A DNA stretch of 64,000 bases, taken from NCBI GenBank assembly GCA_944320495.1, contig CALUHR010000005.1, forward strand, positions 96,001-160,000. Reading direction: 5' to 3'. Position numbers and translations under genes: made by a program. Below are positions 16,142 to 18,219 of this stretch, one piece after another. The DNA is from Candidatus Methanomethylophilaceae archaeon (lineage in GTDB: Archaea > Thermoplasmatota > Thermoplasmata > Methanomassiliicoccales > Methanomethylophilaceae). A model generated the notes under the pieces. That model made no database searches, had not been told where the DNA came from, and saw only the letters and a program-made list of their open reading frames with translations. How positions within the stretch are numbered: position 1 is the stretch's first letter; the number at the start of each line of letters is the position of its first letter.

Positions 16142-16929
16142 CGTCCCCGCTCGAGGTCCGCGAGCTCGGATACGACTATGACGGGAGGTCCATCCTCGAC
16201 TCCGTCACATGGGACCTCCGCAAGGGGGAGATCCTCGGCGTCCTGGGCCCCAACGGATGCGGCAAGACCACTATGCTGAGGAACCTCAACAGGAACCTCT
16301 CGCCCAAACGCGGATGCGTCGTCCTCGCCGGCACCGACCTGGAGGACATGGCCAAGAGGGACATAGCCAGGCACATCGCCGCCGTTCCCCAGAGCAACGA
16401 GATCCGCTTCGCCTTCACCGTCCGCGAGATGGTCGCCATGGGCAGGATGCCCTTCCAGGAGGCCTTCCGCGGGAACTCCTCCGAGGACGAGCGCATAATC
16501 GACGAGGCCATGGAGCTCACCGGCATCACCCACATGTCCGACCGCCTGATCAACACCATGAGCGGCGGAGAGCGTCAGCGCGTGATCATCGCACGCGCGC
16601 TGACACAGCAGCCGGAGATCCTCCTGATGGATGAGCCGACACTACATCTTGACATCAACATGCAGTTCGAGGTCCTCGACCTGGTGTCCAAACTCTCCAG
16701 GGACAGGGGGCTCACCGTCGTCATCGTGTCCCACGACCTGCCGATGGTCGCCCGCTACTGCGACAGGATCATCCTCATCCACGACAGGACCGTCTGGGCC
16801 GAGGGGAAACCCGAGGACGTCCTCACGCCGGAGAACATGCGCACGGTGTTCAACATCGACGCTAGGTTCGAGCTGGATGACAGGGGCCAGAGGACCGTGA
16901 GGCTCTACGGCGCCTGCCCCAGGGAATGA
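16135..16929 (+). CDS. ABC transporter ATP-binding protein (FepC/BtuD-like)
   Basis: GPNGCGKTT, MSGGERQRV, LMDEPT, SHD motifs. Confidence 0.92.
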   Translation: MVTSPLEVRELGYDYDGRSILDSVTWDLRKGEILGVLGPNGCGKTTMLRNLNRNLSPKRGCVVLAGTDLEDMAKRDIARHIAAVPQSNEIRFAFTVREMVAMGRMPFQEAFRGNSSEDERIIDEAMELTGITHMSDRLINTMSGGERQRVIIARALTQQPEILLMDEPTLHLDINMQFEVLDLVSKLSRDRGLTVVIVSHDLPMVARYCDRIILIHDRTVWAEGKPEDVLTPENMRTVFNIDARFELDDRGQRTVRLYGACPRE

Positions 16930-16985
16930 CTATCGGTTCGTAGGATGACTCGATCGAGTTCTGCCCTCGTCGAGAACTTGCTGAA

Positions 16986-17206
16986 AGGCGGGAAGTCCGA
17001 GTGCACCGGCTTCTCAACTCTCGGTGCACCCGGAACCGTCCCGGCAGGAGGTGATACGACCCTAGTGATCATCGCTGAAATCCGGAACTCTGGTTCCTAG
17101 TGACGATCGTCACCGGCGGCGGTGTGATCGTCATTGACATTCCGTAAGGAATGCCGAGGTCTGATCCGCCTCAAGGATCCGGCTCCTTCGGGAGCCGTTA
17201 CCTCCT
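16986..17206 (+). ncRNA. Structured RNA module copy 1 (type I toxin mRNA-like, frameshifted mini-ORF)
   Basis: Homologous to the inverted copy at 17473-17699, with compensatory changes in four stems; AGGAGGT at 17046 and ACCTCCT at 17200. Confidence 0.55.
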
Positions 17207-17472
17207 TGGTTCTAGTAATGGACGCGTGCGATATAACAATCTGCCGACAGAGTAACCGCCGGAATACGATTCCCGGATGCCTTGAATCTTCAGAATGCTG
17301 CGCGACCACAGTCCGTTCCGACGAATGAGGACGTCATGGATGCTGCTGTCCAAGAGCTTGAGACCCTACGACACTCTACTCTCGAGGATCGGAATCGATT
17401 ATGTTTAAGGTCCTAGATCATAATTCTTATCGAAGAGCAAGTGTTAATTAGACCCATGCCAATCTCATATCC

Positions 17473-17699
17473 AGGAGGTTGACGGTCCCCGAAGGGACCG
17501 GATGCCTTCAGGGCATCACTCTTCGCCATCCATCAATGGATGACGATGGTGATCCTGACCCTGGGGGTCCTGACCACCACACGAAGCACGCCCCGACGGC
17601 GCTCGATACGGATCTTCAGGATCCTACCAACCTCCTACCGGGACGGTTCCGTGCATGCTGAGAAGGTGAGATGTCACGGCATGCACGGACTTCCCGCCT
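17473..17699 (-). ncRNA. Structured RNA module copy 2 (type I toxin mRNA-like, intact 29-codon mini-ORF 17533-17622)
   Basis: Same layout as copy 1; strong TATA box at 17730-17737 about 25-30 nt upstream. Confidence 0.55.
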
Positions 17700-17729
17700 A
17701 CCAGCGATTCTAGGCCAGTTGTGTATATG

Positions 17730-17737
17730 TTATATAT
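17730..17737 (-). promoter_or_regulatory. TATA box candidate for module copy 2
   Basis: ATATATAA on the minus strand within an AT-rich tract, at archaeal spacing from the module 5' end. Confidence 0.5.
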
Positions 17738-17871
17738 TTATCGAATAGACATCTTTTATCATAACAGAATTCTACTCGATCGATCTGAAACAGCGTCAAT
17801 CCACCGCCCCGAACCGCCGATCGCTGGTTGTTGGGGAACCTACTTATCGAAGCCCGCCTACTCCCGCGCAT

Positions 17872-18219
17872 ATGCGCTGGATGCTCCGCTCCAAGATCCA
17901 CAGGGCCACCGTCACCGAGACCCGCGTCGACTACGAAGGCAGCATAACCGTCGACGAGGACCTCCTGGAACGCTCCGGGATCTGGGTCGGCGAGAAGGTG
18001 ACCGTCGCCGACGTGAACAACGGCAACCGCTTCGAGACCTACACCCTCCCGGGGAGGAGGGGCAGCGGGGTCATCGCGGTGAACGGCGCCGCCGCGCACC
18101 TCTGTGACGAGGGCGACCTCGTCATCATAATGGCGTACGAGCTCGTGGACGAGCCCATCCATGCCAAGGTGCTCCTCGTCGACGGCGACAACAGGGTCTC
18201 CAGGGAGCTGTTGTATTGA
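17872..18219 (+). CDS. panD: Aspartate 1-decarboxylase (pyruvoyl-dependent)
   Basis: [12 protein letters not shown]...YEGSIT self-cleavage motif, [15 protein letters not shown]. Confidence 0.95.

Follow-up and report, generated by a model that had tools for sequence, protein, structure and literature searches.

A family of predicted beta-sheet mini-proteins of about 29 residues in gut methanogens, carried on structured and possibly self-locked RNAs

Type I toxin mRNAs combine a short reading frame of fewer than 60 codons with a stable, structured RNA in which the Shine-Dalgarno (SD) sequence is sequestered by the 3' end and whose full-length form is inert. Such 5'-3' fold-back locks occur in hok/sok of plasmid R1 and in aapA1/IsoA1 of Helicobacter pylori. 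The loci of type I toxins are characteristically multi-copy, tandem, patchily distributed and accessory, and they often include decayed copies. To our knowledge, nearly all known type I toxins are hydrophobic helical peptides that insert into membranes, and no type I toxin-antitoxin system has been described from an archaeon. A toxin module that is found in archaea is CreTA of the haloarchaea, in which a small RNA combines a mini-frame with a strong ribosome site; the action of CreT depends on rare codons, and a crRNA-like RNA located beside a CRISPR-Cas locus serves as its partner. A near-cognate start codon that tunes translation to a low level is known from infC (IF3) of Escherichia coli, a single-copy, autoregulated housekeeping gene that begins with AUU. 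According to PMC12390103, type I systems have been reported only from a few bacterial phyla.

The locus described here lies in a stretch of 64,000 nucleotides from a Candidatus Methanomethylophilaceae archaeon (the window). The gap at 16930-17871 (943 nt), between the last gene of an ABC importer (ending at 16929) and a panD-like gene (starting at 17872), contains two inverted homologous modules of about 240 nt each. Copy 2 is laid out as a 5' leader, a 29-codon frame, two 3' hairpins and a tail, and is homologous both to copy 1 and to modules in other genomes. These two copies, which are diverged from each other, are the only ones in the genome of 1.77 Mb, and a MITE or other repeat element was ruled out on that ground. 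The features of the two modules are as follows.

16970-17215, plus strand: module copy 1; minimum free energy (MFE) -117.1 kcal/mol, z -5.8 against shuffles; RNA fold kept, coding capacity lost.
17470-17715, minus strand: module copy 2; MFE -128.9 kcal/mol, z -6.1 against shuffles; apparently intact.
17533-17622, minus strand: mini-protein frame of copy 2; putative ATC start at 17622-17620, 29 codons, TGA stop at 17535-17533, net charge +8.
17059-17147, plus strand: broken frame of copy 1; ACC at the start position, one base lost between 17086 and 17096, TAA at 17145-17147.
17631-17707, minus strand: 5' leader of copy 2, conserved and folded into a long hairpin whose internal loop is asymmetric (GAAG/A); its last bases are GGAGG at 17635-17631.
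17473-17481, minus strand: 3' tail of copy 2, the complementary partner of the GGAGG region in the MFE fold; duplex -17.2 kcal/mol, predicted probability of a paired SD 1.0.
17200-17206, plus strand: ACCUCCU, the 3' tail of copy 1; its complement in the MFE fold is GGAGG at 17047-17051, duplex -17.1 kcal/mol.
17729-17743, minus strand: TATA-like box accompanied by an upstream element of CGATA type, located some 25-30 nt ahead of the 5' end of copy 2; read from the sequence.
17441-17455, either strand: promoter-like AT-rich box after copy 2, about 30-45 nt past the terminal hairpin.
17228-17241, either strand: promoter-like AT-rich box after copy 1, about 30-45 nt past the terminal hairpin.

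An earlier sequence-only reading had picked out the two frames as homologous mini-proteins lacking an ATG start, and translation bears out the frames themselves. On the minus strand, 17640-17530 yields the 29 residues proposed for copy 2, followed by TGA and directly preceded by AGG; the frame is matched by the peptide profile (E 6.5e-10), and its ATC lies 8 nt past GGAGG. Copy 1 has the same frame with one base missing: nine N-terminal residues can be read from the ACC at 17059 before this frame stops, and 17088-17147 supplies the 19 C-terminal residues and TAA, with ACG at 17056-17058. A single base must have been lost since two bases (17086-17087) remain between its two frames, and the columns from start to stop span 89 nt, not 90. 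The proposed break at 17086-17087 is a possible placement; the closest homologue instead puts the gap after the GGT at 17092-17094, where its own next codon is TTC, and the exact missing base of copy 1 cannot be fixed. The nine identities claimed between the copies (L2, I4, E7, R9, V15, T19, I24, I26 and I28) hold when the translations are compared by eye. The likeness of the two copies goes far beyond chance, because the homology extends over about 240 nt and because frame, length and stop recur in dozens of homologues.

The suggestion that copy 1 is inactivated agrees with its frameshift, with ACC in place of the start codon and with the lack of an upstream TATA-like box on reading the sequence. 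In addition, Leu replaces the conserved Arg/His at position 14, after the first turn. Copy 1 is therefore best read as a decaying copy. Copy 2 looks functional, and would be the working gene of the window, because promoter box, leader, GGAGG, ATC at 8 nt, intact frame, TGA and complementary tail are all present; the box at 17729-17743 is its own candidate promoter.

Full-length modules with 65-72% identity were found by blastn in 19 of the 36 genomes of the same genus, and the peptide profile gave matches in 55 of 261 genomes of the order. These matches are confined to one family, of Methanomethylophilaceae type (54 of 173 genomes, eight genera), with none in 87 genomes of the other six families. 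Distribution is patchy within a single genus, in which 33 of 61 genomes carry peptide matches. Among the matches listed, there are at most six per genome, and tandem arrays are spaced 380-440 nt. The neighbours of the modules are unrelated between loci, and include IS110 and DDE transposases, HTH proteins, a Schlafen/AlbA ATPase, tRNAs and housekeeping genes. No module was found within 1.5 kb upstream of panD in any of 44 relatives, and in the three relatives in which both flanking genes could be aligned the ABC-panD gap measures 88-225 nt against 943 nt in the window, indicating that the module pair is a lineage-specific insertion. Five of the 35 aligned copies are broken, through single-base deletions, deletion of the start region or loss of the stop.

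Several individual loci are worth describing on their own account. In two relatives, at L122 and L123 (about 190-1500), some 1.3 kb separates the same ABC gene from panD and contains no module or peptide match; the space between these genes appears to act as a hot spot in which different lineages have acquired different cargo. L101 (G113:C1:1284213-1285116) holds three tandem copies with strongly cationic variants (net +7 to +8), similar to copy 2 of the window; one of these copies terminates in TAG, which in a pyrrolysine-using order may not be a clean stop. L111 (G107:C1:959211-959447) consists of two divergent back-to-back modules with leaders 83 nt apart, one of which has an ATG start and a shortened, two-strand version of the peptide with 19 residues. 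At L109 (G159:C1, around 468378) the module is cut directly after the SD site. The downstream frame at L109 has an N-terminus that is IS110-transposase-like by eye and, if so, an insertion has destroyed the mini-protein frame.

Evidence that the frame is coding comes from the alignment of 35 modules (A4), of which 30 retain an uninterrupted frame, 28-30 codons long, that ends at a common stop column, and in which the lengths of intact frames differ solely by multiples of three. Among the hairpins of leader and trailer, loop length differs by 1-5 nt; the loops of the two hairpins within the frame are constant in length or shorter by exactly three bases. When homologues are translated in the frame of the shared stop, the same pattern of about 29 residues appears nearly everywhere. 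The sequence-only reading had stated that it would be undone by homologous modules that keep the RNA stems and not the reading frame, length or stop position; in the homologues, all three are conserved. A dN/dS comparison, which it had also proposed, gives, among pairs with an identity of 70% or more, pN/pS of 0.46-0.48 in the frame versus 0.83-1.24 in the two others, and 0.66 versus 0.85 and 0.93 over all pairs; the ratio is only moderately below 1 because RNA helices also hold third positions. The excess of amino-acid similarity over position-permuted substitutions reaches z 23.8 in this frame and at most 12.4 in the other five, figures of which the contrast between frames alone counts because the pairs are not independent. 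The base before TAA varies (G, A or C), as expected of wobble in a Pro codon, and the residue at the second turn may be D, P, G or S. Among 40 distinct intact members, most have 27-29 codons (one has 31), and most modules have a TATA-like box and leader of their own. Divergent subfamilies recovered with a covariance model of the leader (R1) keep the beta pattern of the peptide with different nucleotides. As judged from these alignments, the two frames of the window are real and belong to a previously undescribed family of putative beta-sheet mini-proteins of about 29 residues in gut methanogens.

Other coding explanations of the locus found no support. At the flanks examined, the modules have no conserved downstream or neighbouring gene, and a leader peptide or the precursor of a RiPP was rejected on that ground. 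A conserved antisense protein gene running across the module was likewise rejected, as the long antisense frames at L037, L086 and L089 resemble one another chiefly within the module. The codon-aligned antisense frame is mostly open because TTA, CTA and TCA codons are rare; its extent is not conserved, no starts lie ahead of it, and in most modules it closes without a start. At L037, L080, L086 and L089 an opposite-strand GGAGG-type site and ATG, situated 63-93 nt past the terminal hairpin, point into the module in the codon-aligned antisense frame, and these are taken as chance or a local peculiarity because the frames concerned are not conserved beyond the module.

A perfect GGAGG is present 7 nt (24 cases) or 8 nt (16 cases) ahead of the first codon. 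In the 40 distinct intact frames this codon is ATC in 30, TTG in four, ATG in three, and ATA, CTG and ATT in one each, a tally which took in solely frames with one of these codons 7-8 nt past GGAGG. Nothing upstream is part of the protein, because the two spacing classes shift the frame of the leader and the 8-nt class has an in-frame TAG. The leader-only model R1, which scores 79.2 bits on the leader of copy 2 (G000:C5:113631-113707) and 79.3 bits on 16978-17051 of copy 1, recovers the same loci together with the divergent subfamilies, in which ATG, TTG, CTG, ATA or ATT starts stand at the same distance. In a few divergent members the codon 7-8 nt past GGAGG is not a recognisable start (GCG, ACC or ACG), and these members may be dead or using something else.

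Near-cognate initiation had been proposed for the two frames of the window, at the ACG of copy 1 and the AGG of copy 2. The alignments favour near-cognate initiation in so far as a weak codon is conserved, but place the probable start one codon further on, at ATC. The ACG/AGG codon itself varies (AGG, TGG, AGA, CGA, AAG, ACG and others) and is a stop (TAG or TAA) in two members; ATG, whose prevalence there had been named as a check, occurs in one member only, and the CTG and GTG alternatives a few codons on are not conserved in homologues. From this pattern we infer that the mini-protein would be translated from AUC. ATC also forms one side of a conserved hairpin, GGATC/GATCC, in which its replacement by ATG is accompanied by a change in the partner; part of the conservation of ATC is therefore owed to RNA structure. 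In E. coli, the start codons found in this family all initiate, with AUA, AUC, AUU and CUG working at about 0.02-3% of AUG and still inserting methionine (bioRxiv 10.1101/063800). A genome-wide screen for further ATC starts behind GGAGG was too noisy for a result, since GGAGG is common within genes of this 62% GC genome, and a literature search on AUC starts in archaea and on Methanomethylophilus transcriptomes yielded nothing of use.

Across the 35 modules, RNAalifold and a direct tally of pairs are in agreement on 77 pairs in 15 helices. The proportion of cells that are paired is 82.6%, against 32-45% in controls with the partners slid, and compensatory change was seen at 45 pairs, with 224 cells altered on both sides versus 42-67 in the slid controls. 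Four of the helices lie inside the frame, and leader helices 2-4 covary. The many G-U pairs identify the frame-carrying strand as the RNA strand. In 20 of the 35 MFE folds, the GGAGG region pairs with a CCUCC-like stretch just past the last hairpin, and the mean predicted pairing probability is 0.84 for the SD and 0.85 for the start codon. It is by prediction and covariation alone that the stable structured RNA and occluded ribosome site of toxin mRNAs are recognised here.

No part of the module is as well conserved as the leader (alignment A6), and the unpaired bases of its GAAG/A loop are nearly invariant. This loop is a likely candidate for the binding site of a protein or ligand. A standard kink-turn, of the type bound by L7Ae, consists of a bulge of three nucleotides and, after it, tandem sheared G.A and A.G pairs. 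In the leader, GAAG lies opposite a single A and the first G.A is possible; the second position is Watson-Crick (U-A in 23 and C-G in three; columns 48 and 98), and because this second position covaries as a Watson-Crick pair the loop departs from a standard kink-turn. A search of Rfam over 16800-18000 returned chance-level rows alone (E 1.5-6.6, far below gathering scores); a cobalamin riboswitch, an idea prompted by the adjoining ABC importer, and other known RNA families were rejected for want of an Rfam match. Between sets of modules, columns 173-174 with 200-201 of A4 change from GUG/ACC to ACG/GUC with the helix kept. At the level of the peptide, this exchange is a swap of Val-Thr for Thr-Val at positions 16 and 25, on neighbouring strands (in copy 2, within 17533-17622). 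The predicted RNA hairpin and the modelled beta-hairpin are encoded by the same bases.

Most homologues have an AT-rich peak at -35 to -25 from the 5' end of the module, corresponding to the TATA-like box. A second AT peak (0.63-0.75) recurs across the 35 modules at +30 to +45 past the last hairpin, and this downstream box could be the promoter either of an antisense RNA that enters the module or of a transcript running in the same direction as the module. Comparison of the downstream RNA with the ribosome-binding region gave no cognate-specific complementarity (-22.96 against -23.57 kcal/mol), in a test to which a perfect cis-antisense RNA is invisible. A trans-acting antitoxin encoded just downstream found no support in this comparison, as cognate pairs were no better than non-cognate ones.

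The earlier description of a beta-rich mini-protein is upheld by the conserved frame and by AlphaFold2, which from an alignment of 23 sequences predicts a three-stranded antiparallel sheet (strands 2-9, 14-20 and 24-29; mean pLDDT 93.8) with no helix. Read onto this model, the alignment places Ile, Val and Phe on one face and polar and charged residues on the other. Ile, Val, Leu, Phe and Met make up 38-63% of residues, in alternation, with the exception of one likely broken member (28%), and 6-12 residues are charged. The peptide had also been called cationic, which is true of copy 2 (net +8) and of the tandem set at L101 and does not extend to the family, whose median net charge is -1 (range -3 to +8). 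Pfam, NCBIfam and PADLOC gave no family for the window peptide or its homologues, PDB sequences gave no match to the peptide at E up to 10, and the ESM Atlas no usable one. Fold searches with the model returned generic beta-meander pieces alone (Foldseek against the PDB, E at least 0.29; VIA wide, Z at most 3.9). A CsrA-like relation, suggested by a short shared motif, was discarded, with no Pfam match and no PDB sequence match at that same limit.

A search of 1.84 billion representative proteins produced 32 matches (P0001-P0032). In 31 of these a short called protein (28-93 residues) has the peptide at its C-terminus; the remaining one is a weak partial match in a protein of 585 residues. The variable N-terminal extensions of the called proteins are the conserved leader read as protein, and the few true calls of 28-29 residues begin with M. 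Gene callers run the frame upstream through the leader to the nearest ATG, creating 'proteins' of 38-93 residues with a pseudo-motif made up of leader and SD. Because public gene calls are mostly artefacts of this kind, standard annotation overlooks the family.

A translationally locked small-protein gene of type I toxin-like design is the account to which the analysis leans, with slightly more in its favour than an even balance. Each module would be a self-contained gene, comprising an archaeal TATA-type promoter, a leader of about 80 nt, an SD, a frame of 27-29 codons, two 3' hairpins and a short tail, and the product of the frame would be a three-stranded amphipathic beta-sheet mini-protein. 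Output would be held very low by three built-in locks, namely a near-cognate start codon (AUC in most members), pairing of the SD with the CCUCC-like 3' tail of the same RNA, a putative mimic of the 3' end of 16S rRNA, and enclosure of the start codon within a small hairpin. Translation would then need refolding of the RNA, trimming of its 3' end or a factor bound at the conserved leader loop. The modelled folds suggest that the locks act in this manner. A selfish, toxin-like or stress-released peptide is favoured because of the toxin-mRNA-like design, the multi-copy, tandem and patchy spread, the lineage-specific insertion and the frequent decay; by analogy, the peptide may be toxic. The gene would on this view work like a type I toxin gene, an analogy that does not file it as a member of the class. 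A stronger proposal is that these modules are the first type I-like toxin family of archaea, in which the dosage of a 29-residue beta-sheet toxin is set by AUC and the 3'-tail lock and the hairpins of RNA and peptide co-evolve; this is put forward tentatively, at well short of an even chance.

The same evidence for coding and structure would be expected of a benign regulatory or stress micro-protein carried on a small RNA, which would be condition-dependent and bind a protein or a membrane surface without constituting a toxin or addiction module. No antitoxin emerged from the downstream RNA complementarity, and an amphipathic beta peptide with a median net charge of -1 is unlike membrane-disrupting toxins. 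Moreover, small proteins encoded by archaeal sRNAs, with antisense partners and beneficial effects, are documented in the abstract of bioRxiv 10.1101/2025.10.28.685009. However, patchiness within the genus, diverged copies, tandem arrays, pseudogenes, variable neighbours and lineage-specific insertion fit an accessory or selfish element better, and a triple translation lock would be unusual for a harmless product. A benign micro-protein, comparable to the products of the Methanosarcina mazei spRNAs, is regarded as the chief competing account and as possible, if on the whole somewhat unlikely.

A purely non-coding structured RNA would reduce GGAGG to one strand of a closing helix and the open frame to a by-product of GATC-rich palindromic helices. 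This would suit the pairing of GGAGG with the 3' tail, the location of all parts of the frame in covarying helices, the absence of AUG from most members, the exact RNA compensations (columns 173-174 with 200-201) that underlie the in-frame Val/Thr swaps, and a codon-aligned antisense frame that is mostly open too. Nevertheless, indels within the frame are multiples of three even in hairpin loops whereas leader loops vary freely, the stop is fixed while the base before it wobbles, and both pN/pS and the similarity excess are specific to the frame. In divergent subfamilies the peptide pattern persists on different nucleotides and ATG or TTG takes over as the start, the AlphaFold2 fold is confident, and the openness of the antisense strand, with neither conserved extent nor starts, is due to the rarity of TTA, CTA and TCA codons. 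A non-coding RNA is considered unlikely, and less likely still, to the point of being very improbable, is a toxin acting at the RNA level as a ribosome trap like archaeal CreT, in which a strong site and a short frame tie up ribosomes or tRNA and the peptide is irrelevant. The perfect SD, short frame, archaeal host and highly stable RNA would all fit such a trap, but the peptide is conserved along its whole length, the codons are ordinary by inspection (ATC, GTG, ACC and GAC), the flanks examined contain no CRISPR array or crRNA-like partner, and a weak start codon speaks against a ribosome sink.

The preferred reading, a locked small-protein gene resembling those of type I toxins, has several implications. 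A gene family that conserves an AUC start is very unusual in any prokaryote, and would offer a natural system for studying near-cognate initiation on archaeal ribosomes. For gut and rumen methanogens, the family also represents a concrete candidate of type I-like kind. Within the same 87 nucleotides, a covarying RNA fold coexists with a conserved predicted protein fold, a clean case of dual coding with paired Val/Thr swaps. Finally, it is a family that standard annotation misses, the public gene calls at the locus being artefacts in which the leader is read as protein.

Among the systems outlined above, infC resembles the modules in its conserved near-cognate AUN start and differs in that here a whole family of accessory mini-proteins uses AUC. 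CreTA differs in that the module peptide is conserved over 29 residues, with codons that are ordinary by inspection and no CRISPR context in the flanks examined. The spRNA/asRNA pairs of Methanosarcina mazei are similar in that small proteins of a methanogen are encoded on small independent transcripts and are thought, according to the abstract, to be controlled post-transcriptionally (bioRxiv 10.1101/2025.10.28.685009). They have no sequence relation to the modules, and one of them, sP24, has a predicted transmembrane domain; the abstract of the same report makes no mention of a conserved near-cognate start or of a 5'-3' lock (bioRxiv 10.1101/2025.10.28.685009). With type I toxins, the modules share a short frame, a structured mRNA, an SD predicted to pair with the 3' end and multi-copy, patchy, accessory loci, and a small protein on its own transcript can be recognised from the sequence. 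In contrast to type I toxins, the module peptide is a predicted three-stranded beta-sheet with no transmembrane helix, and thus lacks the hydrophobic helix of that class, and the modules are found in an archaeon and have an AUC start.
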